The notes: generated by a model from the sequence alone, not told the origin. DNA of 64,000 nucleotides from an uncultured Nitrospiraceae bacterium (GCA_963730935.1 CAVSTP010000004.1:640001-704000); one strand, 5' to 3'. Counted from the stretch's first letter, positions 18,901 through 62,014 are shown. Numbers and translations are program-made.

Positions 18901-19000
18901 AACGTCCTCCCTGGCAAGCGGTGCGTATTGAATGGTGGACGGTCAATTATAGTATGCCGACAGATTCTCCGATTCTAGGGACCGCCCTGGGCAGTTCAAA

Positions 19001-19269
19001 TGCTCCCTCCAAGCTTGCTCGTTTCTTCCCTACTCAGCTGAGAGAGGTCGGACTTAGCGGGTGGCGCCGGTCTGGGAGCCTTTCTCACCCACCCAGCCCC
19101 TGCCGCGCCGAAACGCGGCTTTCACCAAGCGCCCGCAGCGATAACCACTCGCCACTTTCCTTCCCAGAATTGGGTGAGCCAATGCGGTCCTGCTGCACGA
19201 CGGCGAGCACTGTTCGATAGTCCGTTCACGCGAAGCGCCAACGGACCGAGTTGCACAGCCGAGCAGATG
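19001..19269. repeat. Composite intergenic repeat (modules A + C + B)
   Basis: Module A 21-mer at 19001 (also 21098, 34354); module C TTTCTCACCCACCCA at 19081 (also 43715); module B at 19203-19269 (also 21029-21093). Confidence 0.8.
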
Positions 19270-19414
19270 CGAAGCTTAGTACGGTCGGTTGAGGCACTGG
19301 AGCGTGCGGCGTCCCATTCTGTGCTTTGGATGAGCTGATGCAAGGCGCGTGCGGTCGAGGGGAAGCATCGGAGCAAGCAGGATCTCCCGCTGGCACTTGC
19401 CTATTGTCGCCAAT

Positions 19415-20325: not shown

Positions 20326-20955
20326 CTAGGTGCCGGCAGGGGCATCTTCCATGGGATCGGCGTAAACTGCTCGCCAGCGATTCAACCCTAGCATTCCCTC
20401 TCCGTAAGGGATCACAGTCACCTGACTTCGATGCTCCGCGATGGCCAGTCTTTTTTTCTCTACATAGGCGTCGATGTATTCGATTCGATCCCATCTTGCG
20501 AACGGACCCCAGACCTCGTACGCCCAGGCGCCTCCGCTTAGCGCGAGACCAGATTCACCCATACTATCTCTCACCAGACTGCCCGCCTGACGGTGGGCCG
20601 TATGCCGATCGAGCTCTTCGTGAAGCGTATAGATCTCAGTAGTCTTAATGTGAGTCATGAGCTCAATCAGTTTTCGCCTGACTGCCTTGACATCGACCTC
20701 GTCCGACGCGTCAGGCTGCGCGCAGAAGATCACGTCCTTCACACCCAAGACCTCCGCTGCCCGCAGCGCCTCAGCCCGCCGCACTTCAGCCATTCGTTGC
20801 TCGGTCCAGCCGAAGGGGTTCGACGCCCGGCCACCGTCTGTCACGATGAGAGAAGTAATCTCGGCTCCTTCCTCAACCAGTTTGGCAACGGTGCCTCCCA
20901 TGCCGATTTCCATGTCATCGGGGTGCGCGCTGACAATGAGAATTTTTCGACTCAT
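20326..20955 (-). CDS. PIG-L/LmbE family deacetylase
   Basis: SAHPDDME, RRAEA, HTAH and HRSQ motifs. Confidence 0.88.
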   Translation of the reverse strand: MSRKILIVSAHPDDMEIGMGGTVAKLVEEGAEITSLIVTDGGRASNPFGWTEQRMAEVRRAEALRAAEVLGVKDVIFCAQPDASDEVDVKAVRRKLIELMTHIKTTEIYTLHEELDRHTAHRQAGSLVRDSMGESGLALSGGAWAYEVWGPFARWDRIEYIDAYVEKKRLAIAEHRSQVTVIPYGEGMLGLNRWRAVYADPMEDAPAGT

Positions 20956-21028
20956 AGGCTGGATGAATGAGATGTGCCCATTCTACGTTTACGAAGGAAC
21001 CGAGTCCATCGCACAAATGGAAGAGGCT

Positions 21029-21122
21029 GCGAGCAGGTTCGATGGTCCGTTCAGCGAAGCTTCAACGGACCGAGTTGCGGAGCCGAGTAGATGTAGATGC
21101 TCCCTCCAAGCTTGCTCGTTTC
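21029..21122. repeat. Composite intergenic repeat (modules B + A)
   Basis: GTCCGTT/AACGGAC hairpin module followed by TGCTCCCTCCAAGCTTGCTCG. Confidence 0.8.
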
Positions 21123-21157
21123 CTTCTTTCCTCAGTGACTGACGGCGTGTCCCGAAA

Positions 21158-21351
21158 GGGATGCCTTCGCGTTTTGTGAACGTTACCGGAGGCCCGAGGA
21201 TCCATCAGGCTGAGCCGGGAAGGAAAACTGGAACTGACCGAAGAATCACGGTTGGTACAACCGCGTCTGAGAAAATTCCAGAAGGCTTCCACCCGGCGAA
21301 GCCCCAATGGATCGGGCCGGGAGGTACATGAACAAAACGCGAAGGCATCCC
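21158..21351. repeat. Long imperfect palindrome, module D copy 1
   Basis: Perfect 20-bp terminal inverted repeat GGGATGCCTTCGCGTTTTGT / ACAAAACGCGAAGGCATCCC with nested stems; homologous to 23989-24167. Confidence 0.85.
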
Positions 21352-21409
21352 ATCACAAATTTCAAATTCCAAAAAGACCTCCTCACATTTTTCTGGTACT
21401 CTTCCCCCC

Positions 21410-22264
21410 ATGCCTCCCCGCTCCAACCTTCGCTCCCCTCGCCGCCGACGGTCACGCCGCCCCTTTACCCTGAAGAAGCAGTGGCGCTTCATCCGTTGGC
21501 GCTGGCGCGAGGGGCGAGCCTTCGTGCGCGCCCTCTCGGCCGCTCATCTCGCCGTGAGCATTCCCGTCACAATCGTGCTGGTTCTCATAGTCTGGCTTGG
21601 CGTCAATTGGACCTACCACGTCATCAGAAAACCGAGCGAAGTACTATTCCCCTTGGACAGCGCGTTCGACAAAAATTTTGCTGAGACCTGGCGGGAGTAC
21701 GGCCCGCTCTTTCGCGAACATGCCACGGCCGTCATCACTCCCGAATTGCTCGCCGCGCTGGCCCAGGTCGAAGGGAGCGGCAACCCCATCGCCAGAACGT
21801 ACTGGCGCTGGCGCGCGTCGTGGAATCCTCTCGAATGGTATCAGCCAGCTTCAAGTGCGGTAGGCATGTATCAGATCACGTCCGGTACGTTTCAGGCTGC
21901 CAGGCGCTATTGCATTCACGATCATGTTGTTGCGGAGGACGGTCCCTGGCACGATGTCCGGTCATGCTGGTTCAATCGTCTCTACACGCGCGTGCTGCCC
22001 AGTCATGCGATCGAGCTGACGGCCGCTCTCCTCGACCGTCAGGTCGCGCAGGCGATCGGGACCCGATCAGGCGCGACATTGCAAAAGAAGCAGGATCTCG
22101 CCGCGATCATTCACCTGTGCGGGTCCTCGGCCGGGCACGCCTACTCCGCGAGCGGGTTCAAACTCGTTCCCCGGCAGCACTGCGGTGATCACGACGTACA
22201 GACTTACCTTCGGAAGGTTAATCAGGCCAAACAGCAGTTCACCAGGCTGGCAGGACGCGCTTGA
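21410..22264 (+). CDS. Lytic transglycosylase (SLT)-domain membrane protein
   Basis: N-terminal TM segment, LAALAQVEG (catalytic Glu) and AVGMYQIT. Confidence 0.75.
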   Translation: MPPRSNLRSPRRRRSRRPFTLKKQWRFIRWRWREGRAFVRALSAAHLAVSIPVTIVLVLIVWLGVNWTYHVIRKPSEVLFPLDSAFDKNFAETWREYGPLFREHATAVITPELLAALAQVEGSGNPIARTYWRWRASWNPLEWYQPASSAVGMYQITSGTFQAARRYCIHDHVVAEDGPWHDVRSCWFNRLYTRVLPSHAIELTAALLDRQVAQAIGTRSGATLQKKQDLAAIIHLCGSSAGHAYSASGFKLVPRQHCGDHDVQTYLRKVNQAKQQFTRLAGRA

Positions 22265-22409
22265 ACCGTAACATGAGATTGATGTTTTAGGGGGAAACAC
22301 GCGAATACGTGCAGAGAATTCGTTTCTGCTGGTCGGCTAGCCCCCACCCCGCTTCTTGTGATAACCTGAGACTACACTCGCCGGTTCGACCGTAAGGCAA
22401 TCACAACCG

Positions 22410-23264
22410 ATGAAGATCATCCGCGCAGGTCGACTCCTGCTCATCACCGTTCTGTTCGTATCGCTGGCCTTTGCCGGGTGCGTGGCCACGACATTGGTGT
22501 ATAACCATGCCGATTGGCTGATCGCGCGTCAGATCGACGGCTACTTCGATCTCAACCGTTCGCAAAAAAGGTTTCTCTCGTCGCGGTTGAGCGACATTCT
22601 GAGCCATCATCGTCACGAAGCGCTGCCCCGCTATGAATCGGTGCTGCACCAGGCCAGAGACCGCGCACAGGACGGGCTGACTCCAGACGACCTCGACTGG
22701 GCCTTCCTCCAATACGATCAGCTGAGAGTCGATCTCTTTGCTCGCTTCGTGTCCGATGGAACGGAATTCGTCCGCCAGGTCAACGATCCCCAGGTCAGCC
22801 GGTTGAAGAAAGCGTTGCAGAGCCACTTGGCGCAGGCGGAAGCCCTGCTTCAAGATGATGTCGCCGTACGCCTGACCAAGCGTACGGAGCGAATCCTCGG
22901 CTTGGCCAGAGAATGGCTGGGGCCGCTCTCGATGCAGCAGGAACAGGAGATCACCCGCCTGACGATGAACTTTCCCGATACGTTGCCCTTCTGGTATGCC
23001 CACCAGAAGCACCGTCATGAGCAACTCGTGGCGTTGATCGAATCTCGAAAAAGCGATCAGACGGCCGCGCGGCTTGAGGATTGGTTGGTCAACCAGGACA
23101 AAGACGCAGATCCACAGTTCGCCGAGATGATGAAGCAGCTGCGCCGCCACATTACAGGTCTGGCAATCAGCCTCGATCGCTCCGCCACCGCGGCACAGCG
23201 TCGGCACTTCCTCTCCAAGGTGGACGAACTTGCGGCCACCGTCCGGCGTCTGCAAGCCGCCTAG
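22410..23264 (+). CDS. DUF6279-like lipoprotein
   Basis: Lipobox FAGC, YNHADWL..IDGYFDL..Q and HRHEALPRY. Confidence 0.7.
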   Translation: MKIIRAGRLLLITVLFVSLAFAGCVATTLVYNHADWLIARQIDGYFDLNRSQKRFLSSRLSDILSHHRHEALPRYESVLHQARDRAQDGLTPDDLDWAFLQYDQLRVDLFARFVSDGTEFVRQVNDPQVSRLKKALQSHLAQAEALLQDDVAVRLTKRTERILGLAREWLGPLSMQQEQEITRLTMNFPDTLPFWYAHQKHRHEQLVALIESRKSDQTAARLEDWLVNQDKDADPQFAEMMKQLRRHITGLAISLDRSATAAQRRHFLSKVDELAATVRRLQAA

Positions 23265-23494
23265 ATCTTCAATCCCCGACCAGCTGGCCCGTCTCCGGAT
23301 CGATCCCGGCGAACATCGTGCGGGGCTGGCCGCCGATGGGGCCGATCTGGCTGGACGCCGCTCGACGGCGGCGGTTAGCGCTTCGGTCTTCTCAACAGCA
23401 CCCCTACCGCGGCTTCGCGCACCCTGTTATCGCTGTCGCTGTCGGCGACCCTCGTCAGGGCCGGCTAGATAGGGCGCCTCGAGCGCTCAGGTGA

Positions 23495-23956
23495 CTATCC
23501 TATCCGCTGTTCAAGCTCATCGATCAAGACCCGTTGGCCGGGAAGAAGCTTCCGTCTCGCCAGCGCAACGTCGCACCAGAGTGCGCGATCGACTTCTGGA
23601 AAACTTTGCACGCGTCCCGACTCTGGGGGCCATTCCATAGAAAAGCTGTTGCTGCGGATGGACGCGGCATCGAGATCCCCTTCGACCGCCCATGCCCGGA
23701 TAATTTTTCCGCTTGGCTGCTTGGCCGGCGGCAACTCGACGCAAGACCCGCTCAGTTCCGCTCCGGTCTCTTCAGCAAATTCCCGTTTCGCCACCGACAG
23801 CGGATCTTCACCTTCGACATACTCCCCCTTCGGAATCGACCAGGCACCGTCGTCTTTCTTGGCCCAGAACGGACCGCCGGGATGGACGAGCAACACTTCG
23901 ATTCCCGTTTCACGCCTCCGATAGAGGACAATTCCCGCACTCAGCTTTGCAGCCAT
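23495..23956 (-). CDS. NUDIX hydrolase
   Basis: HPGGPFW, WSIPKGE, AKREFAEETG and FPEVDR; start moved to MAAKLSAG. Confidence 0.88.
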   Translation of the reverse strand: MAAKLSAGIVLYRRRETGIEVLLVHPGGPFWAKKDDGAWSIPKGEYVEGEDPLSVAKREFAEETGAELSGSCVELPPAKQPSGKIIRAWAVEGDLDAASIRSNSFSMEWPPESGRVQSFPEVDRALWCDVALARRKLLPGQRVLIDELEQRIG

Positions 23957-23988
23957 CCGTGATGTATCACTTTCTACAACAAGGCTAC

Positions 23989-24167
23989 CTTGGCCTTCGC
24001 GAACGTTACCGGAGGAGCGAGGTATCCACCGGGCTGAGCCGGGAAGGAAAACTGGAACTGACCGAAGCACCGCGGTTGTGAACAACCGCGGCTGAGAGAA
24101 TTCCAGAAGGCCTTCCGCCCGGCGAAGCCCGAAAGGATCGCTCCGGGAGGACGTGAGCGAGGTCAAG
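23989..24167. repeat. Long imperfect palindrome, module D copy 2
   Basis: Nested stems GGAGCGA/TCGCTCC, CGGGCT/AGCCCG, GCCGGG/CCCGGC, CTGGAA/TTCCAG and CCGCGGTTG/CAACCGCGG. Confidence 0.85.
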
Positions 24168-24184
24168 ACAGCCGTTCTCCCCTC

Positions 24185-24610
24185 CTAGCCTTCCAGCTTG
24201 GCATTCATCTCGATGGTCGTATTCAACAATTTTGAGATCGGGCAGCCGGTTTTTGCTGCCTGCGCGGCCTTGTCCCATGCCGCCTGATCTGCTTTTGGCA
24301 CACGTCCTTTGACATCGAGAAGGATGTGCGTCACCGCCCAGCCCGCCTCAAGTTTGTCCAAGGTCACCGTGGCCTTCGTCTCTAGTTTCTCTGGCGTCAA
24401 TCCGGCATTGCCCAACTGCGCGGAAAGCGCCATAGTGAAACAGCTAGCGTGGGCGGCGGCAATCAATTCCTCCGGATTGGTGCCTTTCCCGTTTTCAAAG
24501 CGCGTCCCGAAGGAATACTGCTGGTTGGTCAACACCCCGCTGTCACTCGACACCGTTCCTTTGCCACTTTTCAAATCGCCTTGCCAGACCGCCGATCCTG
24601 AACGTTTCAT
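24185..24610 (-). CDS. osmC: OsmC family peroxiredoxin
   Basis: GTNPEELIAAAHASCF and CPISK. Confidence 0.93.
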   Translation of the reverse strand: MKRSGSAVWQGDLKSGKGTVSSDSGVLTNQQYSFGTRFENGKGTNPEELIAAAHASCFTMALSAQLGNAGLTPEKLETKATVTLDKLEAGWAVTHILLDVKGRVPKADQAAWDKAAQAAKTGCPISKLLNTTIEMNAKLEG

Positions 24611-34323: not shown

Positions 34324-34430
34324 ATCTCAATCTCAGATCTCAAATTTCAAATTTGCTCCCTCCAAGCTTGCTCGCTCACTCTCCCCAAGAGCGGTCTTGA
34401 TCTGTCCCTCACTGCGCGCTTGACGAGCAC
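34324..34430. repeat. Heptamer tract plus repeat module A
   Basis: Degenerate ATCTCAA/ATTTCAA tandem followed by TGCTCCCTCCAAGCTTGCTCG at 34354. Confidence 0.75.
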
Positions 34431-34698
34431 CTAGGCTTGCTCTTCTTCTTATCGCGGGATGGATGGGTAACCGTCTGCGACTTGCGAGGGGTGCATGGCC
34501 TTGTCACTGCGGTCGCTGTAAGCGATGGCGAGCATTGTTCGAAGTTCCGTTCGATCAGCGGACGGAACAAGTTGCGGAGCCAAGCTGCGACAGGGCCATG
34601 CAGTTTCCCCCTCGCTGAAGCAGCGGTTATCCCACCGTCCTACGCCCCTTTCTGGTATGCCGCGGTTGGCGGGGAAGAGGACGGTTCAGACCGCCCGC

Positions 34699-36438: not shown

Positions 36439-36702
36439 TAGAACCCGAATGCGTGGTGAACTGGATGACCTTCCCCACTTCCTCCTTTGTGGGGGTGGAT
36501 GTCCCGCGAGCGACTTATGCGAAGGCTCGGGACCCGCACCGCCAAGCATCTGCGGTCGCCGCGCGACAGCGAGGATGTCTGACGTTCCGTTTGGCAATAC
36601 CAGAAACGGAACTAGTTTCCGAGCTGAGCTGATGCGAGGCGCTGTGCGGTCGAGCCGTAGCATTCGAGCAAGCAGGATTTCCACCAGCCGCCTCCCCCCT
36701 TC

Positions 36703-40107: not shown

Positions 40108-40207
40108 GATGACTGAAATTCATTCTTCGATGATCCTTCCAAGCCTGCTCGTTCTCTTCACTAAGCGCGTTGGGCGAGCAAATGAACGCATCTCGGCCCT
40201 CCTCGCA

Positions 40208-60658: not shown

Positions 60659-62014
60659 TCAGGCCCGCTTGGACCCGCCCCCGAGCTGGGATGCCAAGCC
60701 CGCAATCTCGCCCAACTTCTTGGCCATTTCCTCGAACCGCTTGGTGGCCTGCTGCGCAGCCATCTCGGTTTCTGAGACGCGGCGGGCGAGGACCGAGTTG
60801 CGTTCCCGCTCGGTTTCCAAGAGCTGTTGGATTTCCTTCGCTTTTCCGCCGCTGCTCTCGGTGTCGGCCAGGCGACGGGTGAGCTCTTCTACACGCTGTT
60901 GTTCGCGGGAATACTGATGGGCTAACTCTTGCGAGCGACTCACCGCCTTCTCCATCGCCGTCATTTGTTGCACCAACTGCGTCGCCGCTTGGCGCTCGGC
61001 ATTCAAGGCGGCCTCCAGTTCCTGCACCCGGCCGACGGATTTCTGCAGCTCGTTCATGCGCTGTATCTGCTGCGCCGTCAACGCCCGTTCTTTCTGCAGC
61101 ACGCCCTCCAACTCCTGCGCGCGAGCAGCCTGGCTTTGTAACTCCGCGGCGAGCTTCTTGGATTGCGCCGCCTGTTCCCGCTCGTTCTTCCAGAGCGTTT
61201 CCAGCTCTTTCAGCCGTTGAGTGGCGTTGGCGAGTTCGTTCGCGGCCTTTTTCCCTTGTGCGGCCTGCTCGCGTTCGATGGCCAGCAACGATTCCAGCTC
61301 TTTGACACGCCCAGCCTGTACTTCCAGCTCTTTGAGGCGTCCCGACTGGGCTTCCAGTTCCTTGATCCGGCCTGCCTGGACCTCGAGGTCTTTGACCCGC
61401 GCGGCTTGGGTCTCCAGGTCTTTGACGCGACCGGCTTGATCCTCGAGTTGAGACAGACGTTGCGTCAATTGCGCCGTTTGACGACGTTCCTTTTCTAGCT
61501 CCGCTTCGACCTGTTTGAGTTTCTCGAGCGTCTGGCGAGAGAGATCCGTCGGCTCTGATGGAATCGCAACGCTGGGCGCGGGAGCCGGCGGAGCCGCAGG
61601 CGCAGAGGCGGGTTTGGCAGAAGCAGGAGCAGCGGCCGCTGCCTGTTGCTTCTTGCTCAGGAGCTCCAACACCCGGTCTTTGAGCGACGTGCCTTGGAAC
61701 GGCTTTTTCAGTACGCCGTCTGCGTGACACGACTCGGCCTGCTTGGTGACTTCGTCATTGACGATGCCGGAAATCAGCAGCACCGGCGTCTTCGCCAGGG
61801 CGGCCTGTCCGCGCACGAACGCGCAGACTTCATACCCGCTCTTGTCCGGCATGATGACGTCGGACACGATGAGGTCGGGGGCCTCTTTCGCGAGGAAGGC
61901 CAAGGCCTCTTCGCCGTTGGCCGCCAATGTCACGCCTAACCCGGCCTCCGTCAGCAGCCGTTCGGCAACCTTGCGAACGGCAATGCTATCGTCTGCGACC
62001 AGGATCTTCGGCAT
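60659..62014 (-). CDS. Response regulator with a long coiled-coil tail
   Basis: REC domain (ADDS, SDVIMP, KKPF), Ala/Pro linker and coiled coil. Confidence 0.88.
   Translation of the reverse strand: MPKILVADDSIAVRKVAERLLTEAGLGVTLAANGEEALAFLAKEAPDLIVSDVIMPDKSGYEVCAFVRGQAALAKTPVLLISGIVNDEVTKQAESCHADGVLKKPFQGTSLKDRVLELLSKKQQAAAAAPASAKPASAPAAPPAPAPSVAIPSEPTDLSRQTLEKLKQVEAELEKERRQTAQLTQRLSQLEDQAGRVKDLETQAARVKDLEVQAGRIKELEAQSGRLKELEVQAGRVKELESLLAIEREQAAQGKKAANELANATQRLKELETLWKNEREQAAQSKKLAAELQSQAARAQELEGVLQKERALTAQQIQRMNELQKSVGRVQELEAALNAERQAATQLVQQMTAMEKAVSRSQELAHQYSREQQRVEELTRRLADTESSGGKAKEIQQLLETERERNSVLARRVSETEMAAQQATKRFEEMAKKLGEIAGLASQLGGGSKRA
61292..61441 (-). repeat. Five in-frame 30-nt tandem repeats
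   Basis: DQAGRVKDLE TQAARVKDLE VQAGRIKELE AQSGRLKELE VQAGRVKELE. Confidence 0.85.

Follow-up and report, generated by a model that had tools for sequence, protein, structure and literature searches.

We found that two long hairpins in a window of 64,000 nucleotides, the whole stretch of DNA that we analyzed from an uncultured Nitrospiraceae bacterium, belong to a genuine family of dispersed repeats that is uncatalogued but of a familiar kind. We are quite confident of the class of the element, namely a dispersed, non-coding repeat that resembles ERIC. On balance, we favor the fuller reading that such a repeat folds as a rod of single-stranded DNA (ssDNA) and is copied by an enzyme acting in trans; that this enzyme is of the HUH type is a tentative proposal that we hold with considerable doubt. 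How long palindromic repeats spread without transposon ends is an old open question. To it, this family of rods brings a core that is shared across phyla, a sister lineage that lacks the core but has IS66 ends, genomic sites that are filled, collapsed or swapped, and indications in the sequence that the fold forms in DNA. The cross-phylum core is the part that we think most worthwhile to pursue.

Both rods in the window are long forms, lie on the + strand and are intergenic. Copy 1 (21158..21351, 194 nt) stands between the gene for a PIG-L family deacetylase (20326..20955, − strand) and a gene with a weak SLT transglycosylase match below the Pfam cut-off (21410..22264, + strand). Copy 2 (191 nt) stands between the genes for a NUDIX hydrolase (23495..23956, − strand) and an OsmC-like protein (24185..24610, − strand); 11 nt separate its 3′ foot from the stop codon of the latter gene, which is on the opposite strand. 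A DUF6279 gene (22410..23264, + strand) is located between the copies. An earlier, sequence-only reading had called attention to both palindromes; they are indeed present, but the bounds it gave for copy 2 (23989-24167) are too narrow, as the stem really reaches 23983..24173. That reading described the two as homologous and in the same orientation, which we found to be the case (88% identity over 150 nt). It also held that each folds into a single long bulged hairpin, and the folding energies agree (z = −8.8 for copy 1 and −6.8 for copy 2, with 0 of 200 shuffles equaling them). A core of 36 nt, at 21208 and 24032, is identical in both copies, as had been noticed, and the compensatory exchange of GGCCCGA/TCGGGCC for GGAGCGA/TCGCTCC in the stem is present as described. 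Further, the apical loops differ (GTA in one copy, TGAA in the other), and the closing stem of copy 1 is a perfect terminal inverted repeat of exactly 20 bp.

The 5′ half of the copy 1 core (21218..21243, +) comprises a purine-rich loop, a 6-bp stem and tandem G·A loops, and its 3′ half (21269..21290, +) is the site of an optional side module in other copies; the apical GTA triloop at 21255..21257 (+) is of the GNA type. The corresponding halves of the copy 2 core are at 24042..24067 and 24094..24116 (both +). As for copy number, which the earlier reading had proposed establishing, the genome has four rods in all; the two besides the window pair, C4:1561071 (+) and C3:795759 (−), are more distant. 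By themselves, the window copies are unremarkable and typical of an old family of repeats.

Relatives of the rod were detected by BLASTN in 27 of 61 related genomes. A covariance model, built like the covariation test on 24 aligned copies, located rods in 98 of 151 Nitrospiraceae genomes and in 28 of 31 genera, with 1 to at least 16 copies in each genome; these copy numbers are lower bounds, 16 candidates having been scored per genome. Some rods are of a short form that has no apical stem, and the side module is found in 36 of 324 cores. The earlier suggestion that the structure is being maintained is borne out by the alignment, in which 92% of cells are paired and 44 of the 62 pairs have changed on both sides. 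In controls that retain the relatedness of the copies, 0 of 500 shuffles reach these values, and structures slid along the alignment pair 30-49%. The invariant letters in the 24 copies are those of the central 6-bp stem and the surrounding purine-rich loops, and the most conserved letters are unpaired, in asymmetric loops. The hairpins had not been recognized as a named family, and Rfam 15 has no match within the window. Rfam covariance models run on the region and 35 loci gave chance-level matches only, none of them at gathering score; one of these, to group II D1-D4-3 (E 0.34), was below the gathering score and was taken as chance. No description of the rod was found in the open-access literature searched; supplementary lists of repeats or RNA motifs could hold the family. 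Phage and plasmid records contained no rod match, and a single pattern found none in viral contigs.

Strong covariation might also have a chiefly mutational origin, in which template switching copies one arm of the palindrome and the fold is unselected. Template switching can yield multi-base compensatory changes (10.1101/2021.04.15.439925), and in one genome (G118) the outer stems of the copies have diverged widely yet pair perfectly, around a near-identical interior. The copying of arms would, however, erase the conserved, unpaired asymmetric loops. Further, the excess of G-T over A-C (130 versus 30 in Watson-Crick-majority pairs of the best 75 matches) is strand-specific, and the 6-bp stem of the core has been kept in four different compensating forms across Nitrospirota and hosts from other phyla (two rows with wrong coordinates were left out of this cross-host alignment). 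We regard a mainly mutational origin of the compensatory changes as very unlikely: template switching can explain the perfect, fast-changing outer arms, but not the conserved asymmetric loops.

The strand asymmetry extends to the energy of folding. Among the first 120 of 225 rods, the + strand has the lower energy in 115 when folded as DNA and in 111 when folded as RNA; in copy 1 alone, both strands fold equally well. The folding strand is antisense to the downstream gene in 58 of the 87 contexts compared (p = 0.0025), and 34 of these 58 are within 40 nt of the stop of that gene. It is the C-rich strand, taken here as the leading-strand template, at 42 of 58 loci (p = 0.0009; 35 of 50 once the gene-strand effect is removed). 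Both p-values overstate the significance, because the loci are related. Otherwise, a -35-like hexamer follows on the favored strand, in 19 of 138 contexts (controls, 1-9). GNA accounts for 18 of 36 apical triloops; of 39 tetraloops, 5 are GNRA and 0 are UNCG. Tandem G·A loops, such as those in the core, are typical of RNA too. In a sister family of rods, family Y, the apex reads C-GNA-G in 23 of 40 copies and never does so on the opposite strand; this family displays no replication bias (16/31). DNA mini-hairpins of the GCGNAGC type are described as much more stable than their RNA counterparts (PMC13037366). Because of the one-strand folding, the antisense position, the GNA loops and the bias for the leading-strand template, we think that the structure matters as ssDNA, and folding as ssDNA is favored over folding as RNA.

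Could the rod nonetheless be a multicopy functional RNA, such as a small RNA, a protein decoy or a 3′-UTR stability element? The strong covariation, the invariant purine-rich loops and the proximity to stop codons would suit one, and an influence on mRNA decay is described for co-transcribed MITEs, ERIC among them (PMC3184786). The better-folding strand, however, is usually the one opposite the mRNA strand; no promoter or terminator fitting the rod is found in 20900-24300; and RNA-type tetraloops are few. Further, a rod match is absent from 53 of the 151 Nitrospiraceae genomes, and the rod has been lost at the same sites in relatives that are 92-96% identical. The length and rod shape recall 6S RNA (RF00013), a candidate that we rejected: the rod has no large central bubble and no match to the model, and the genome has a separate 6S match at another locus. 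Assembled RNA contigs from eight runs (contigs only) exhibit no pile-up over rods, where cover is lower; this pattern speaks neither for nor against an RNA. A contig of run X1 joins 24035 to 24179 with most of copy 2 missing; it may represent a deletion allele or a cDNA artefact. To us, a functional RNA is a quite unlikely explanation. The sequence-only reading had posed the choice between such an RNA and an ssDNA hairpin recognized by a trans-acting enzyme, for instance an HUH transposase or recombinase. Our results favor the ssDNA and mobile-element side of that choice and not the RNA side, but a link to an HUH transposase or recombinase was not found. For RNA discovery, the caution is that covariation this strong need not imply an RNA gene.

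The behavior of the rod among relatives is that of a non-autonomous element that comes and goes. Empty sites, which the earlier reading had proposed looking for, do occur: at the NUDIX-OsmC site, the rod is present in 4 of 14 genomes, in one of them with the apex deleted, and of the remaining genomes one has a collapsed foot only and the others are empty or carry other repeats. The orthologues of copy 2 form a supported clade. The copy 1 site, upstream of the SLT-like gene, has the rod only in the genome of the window (1 of 27); in one relative, which is 92% identical, a family Y rod ends at that very 3′ junction, and a second relative has a collapsed rod. In all, 222 rods occupy 138 distinct downstream contexts. 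No recurrent neighbor family accounts for more than 7 of 533 proteins, and a scan of 243 neighbor proteins gave two IS3 matches and no common theme. Close pairs of rods are direct in nine cases, divergent in six and convergent in none; the element is thus polar. Divergent pairs also surround accessory genes (L051:335-1723, L050:2564-3998 and L303) in what is possibly a composite element, with no duplication seen; one such accessory gene is nuclease-like by eye and has no Pfam match at 1e-5.

ERIC is accompanied by a duplication of the dinucleotide TA. The rods share with ERIC/IRU a long imperfect palindrome with a conserved center, intergenic placement, multiple copies, patchy presence and no coding capacity. 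They differ in that they measure 175-230 nt across the family, compared to ~127 bp for ERIC/IRU, which is classed as a MITE (PMC3184786); in that their ends are variable in sequence; and in that the 225 Nitrospiraceae rods have no TA or other duplication (2-nt duplications number 18 in the 225 versus 15 in shuffles). The rods are likened to ERIC by description, not by sequence.

The reach of the core extends beyond Nitrospirota. About 45 nt of it recur in genomes of Patescibacteria, Saccharibacteria and Desantisbacteria, and true rods with the same core are found in records labeled Patescibacteria (five copies), Saccharibacteria (two), Desantisbacteria (three) and Pseudomonadales (one), the lone Pseudomonadales record being less certain as a host. 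The patescibacterial and saccharibacterial rods are unlikely to be misbinned Nitrospira DNA, because they reside in DNA of ~40% GC and one of them lies between rpsG and fusA. A pattern scan returned at least 129 loci; among the matches listed, 12 are labeled non-Nitrospirota, of which 4 are true rods and 8 were discarded as chance occurrences in apparently coding DNA. The sole match in family f16 (L225) is not a rod. One explanation for a core that is kept, with compensatory changes, in Nitrospirota, Patescibacteria, Saccharibacteria and Desantisbacteria genomes is that a single ssDNA-processing enzyme, common to many bacteria, binds there; it would copy ERIC-like rods that have no terminal repeats. 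We offer this as a speculation that is rather more apt to be wrong than right. If it were true, the loss of the core in a lineage with IS66 ends would serve as a natural control, and the long-standing question of the mobility of ERIC-type repeats would become directly testable. At Patescibacteria-type and similar loci (L251, L257, L258, L259, L254 and L375), a second, T/A-rich hairpin occurs after the rod and not before it.

The lineage with IS66 ends is a second Nitrospirota family (f14), where the covariance model matches 7 of 11 genomes and the rods are without the invariant core. There, compared with the first 16 nt of the IS66 end, 19 of 31 copies agree at 12 or more positions, versus 0.5% of control segments. 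Eighteen of the 31 copies have a recognizable right end (the other 13 lacked one), and 8 of the 18 have a direct repeat matching at 7/8 or 8/8 positions, versus 0.6 in shuffles. In genome G124, an IS66-family element (NF033517) at L394:732-3109 has perfect 22-bp terminal repeats and ends that match the f14 rods; it carries a single transposase gene and an unassigned upstream ORF of 293 amino acids. ISDge4, of the ISBst12 group of IS66, is described as having similar ends and an 8-bp duplication (PMC12898284). In f14, the rods are like ISBst12-group MITEs, having GTAA...TTAC ends that match the resident IS66 element and 8-bp duplications.

These facts raise the possibility that all copies are such MITEs, the Nitrospiraceae ones being old and their ends and duplications decayed; the f14 end matches and duplications, together with the resemblance of ISDge4, speak for it. 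However, the window copies and the other Nitrospiraceae copies tested are without such ends or duplications: across the 225 rods, the ends score no better than shuffles against the IS66 end, and there are 0 exact 8-bp target duplications and imperfect ones at shuffle level. The IS66 transposase is absent from G000, G035 and G125; among five carriers of the rod, an f14 genome is the only one to have it, and a search of 37 relatives for the f14-type protein gave nothing. Further, the core is kept outside f14, yet would be unneeded in the interior of a MITE. We judge the proposition that all copies are IS66 MITEs to be unlikely. The only mobilizing link shown is of the IS66 type, in f14, outside Nitrospiraceae.

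A linked transposase had been proposed as something to look for beside the rods, and among the 243 neighbor proteins this search gave only the two IS3 matches: Y1, IS66 and reverse transcriptase match 0 of them, and a blastp check returned nothing. Conversely, a rod is present at 0 of 20 Y1 loci. No Y1 genes were found in G035 and G254, with at least 16 rods each, or in G004, G019 and G020, and Y1 genes are present in G002, G003, G012 and G018, all without a rod match; the presence of Y1 does not track the rod or its copy number. With five carriers examined for each, IS110, reverse transcriptase and integron integrase are each found in one of five; IS91 matched 0 of 5, a negative that carries no weight since control genomes were unmatched too. 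Small stand-alone GIY-YIG genes occur in four high-copy genomes (L578, L579, L581, L583 and L584) and not in the window's genome; no rod is alongside them, and some adjoin short hairpin repeats and sequence that resembles tRNA or tmRNA.

Two other systems invite comparison. With REP/BIME/REPIN-RAYT and TIR-TIRYT (PMC3733652, PMC6006769, PMC11208160), the rods have in common that they are hairpin repeats near gene ends, with mosaic modules, no duplication and service as an IS110 target. The rods are nevertheless much longer than REPs, have a conserved center and variable ends, which is the reverse of REPINs, and, unlike REP/REPIN and TIRtrons, have no Y1 gene flanking them. The GTAG or CGTC tag that marks the foot of the 20-65-nt REP hairpin was not found at the rod feet, where base frequencies reflect G-rich and C-rich feet. 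Of 221 rods, 40 have a TIRYT-like terminal-repeat hairpin on their upstream side and 3 on their downstream side; a consensus for TIRYT terminal repeats is given in PMC3733652 and PMC6006769. In the window's own genome, at G000:C4:809747 (L435), a TIRYT-like Y1 transposase gene lies between terminal repeats of the type GGGGACAG. The second system, the attC sites of integrons, resembles the rods in having one folding strand that prefers the leading-strand template (PMC11023631), but the rods have no R boxes at their ends and are outside direct-repeat cassette arrays, 6 of the 15 close pairs are divergent, and the integron integrase is absent from 4 of 5 carriers.

Our preferred reading, a repeat that moves as ssDNA, would proceed as follows. 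The strand with purine loops would fold as an ssDNA rod, and a trans-acting enzyme, most plausibly an HUH (Y1-type) ssDNA transposase, would read the folded core and copy the rod into new intergenic sites. Copying may require a folded template, which would preserve the fold, and template switching probably helps to keep the arms perfect. Deletion would have removed other copies, so that those which persist best adjoin stop codons and promoters and have their folding strand on the leading-strand template. Against this reading, enzymes of IS200/IS605 are described as targeting the lagging-strand template (PMC6006769); as the strand bias of the rods is opposite to this, it must come from deletion. 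In f14, the core would have been lost after the rod had gained IS66 ends.

In one of 301 genomes (G239), an IS110 element (NF033542) is located within the long side module of a rod (L575:491-1935). Guide-like stretches in its non-coding region match both sides of the site, and their positions track the target in six related elements. That the side hairpin is a remnant of IS110 was ruled out, as the ends of the IS sit within an intact side module, which makes the rod a target of IS110. REP is a reported target of IS621 (PMC11208160). By analogy, the IS110 insertion supports the reading of the rod as a repeat; mobilization of the rod by IS110 does not follow from it.

The rods keep company with other repeats. 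Family Y and the rod have the foot motif in common, but the apex of family Y is of another kind and bears C-GNA-G mini-hairpins. The window's genome has 35 family Y cores, and the window holds the family at 19190-19390, 21028-21122, 34440-34650 and 36490-36690. The second of these (21028..21122, +), just upstream of copy 1, is a remnant with an apex containing a GCGAAGC mini-hairpin, together with a repeat end motif. That motif is at 18999-19025, 21097-21122, 34353-34378 and 40130-40155 in the window, matches 30 times genome-wide, and precedes 10 of 221 rods at a distance of 10-38 nt. Another motif shared in the flanks of rods was set aside as a separate repeat module, being mostly single-ended with no duplication seen. 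In high-copy genomes, a further module begins right after stop codons (L460-L484) and is often joined to the rod, also mostly single-ended. A degenerate hairpin at 23340-23470 of the window, between the DUF6279 and NUDIX genes, is probably the remnant of some other repeat. Finally, positions 61292-61441 hold four copies of a 30-nt unit in tandem, which are probably coding.
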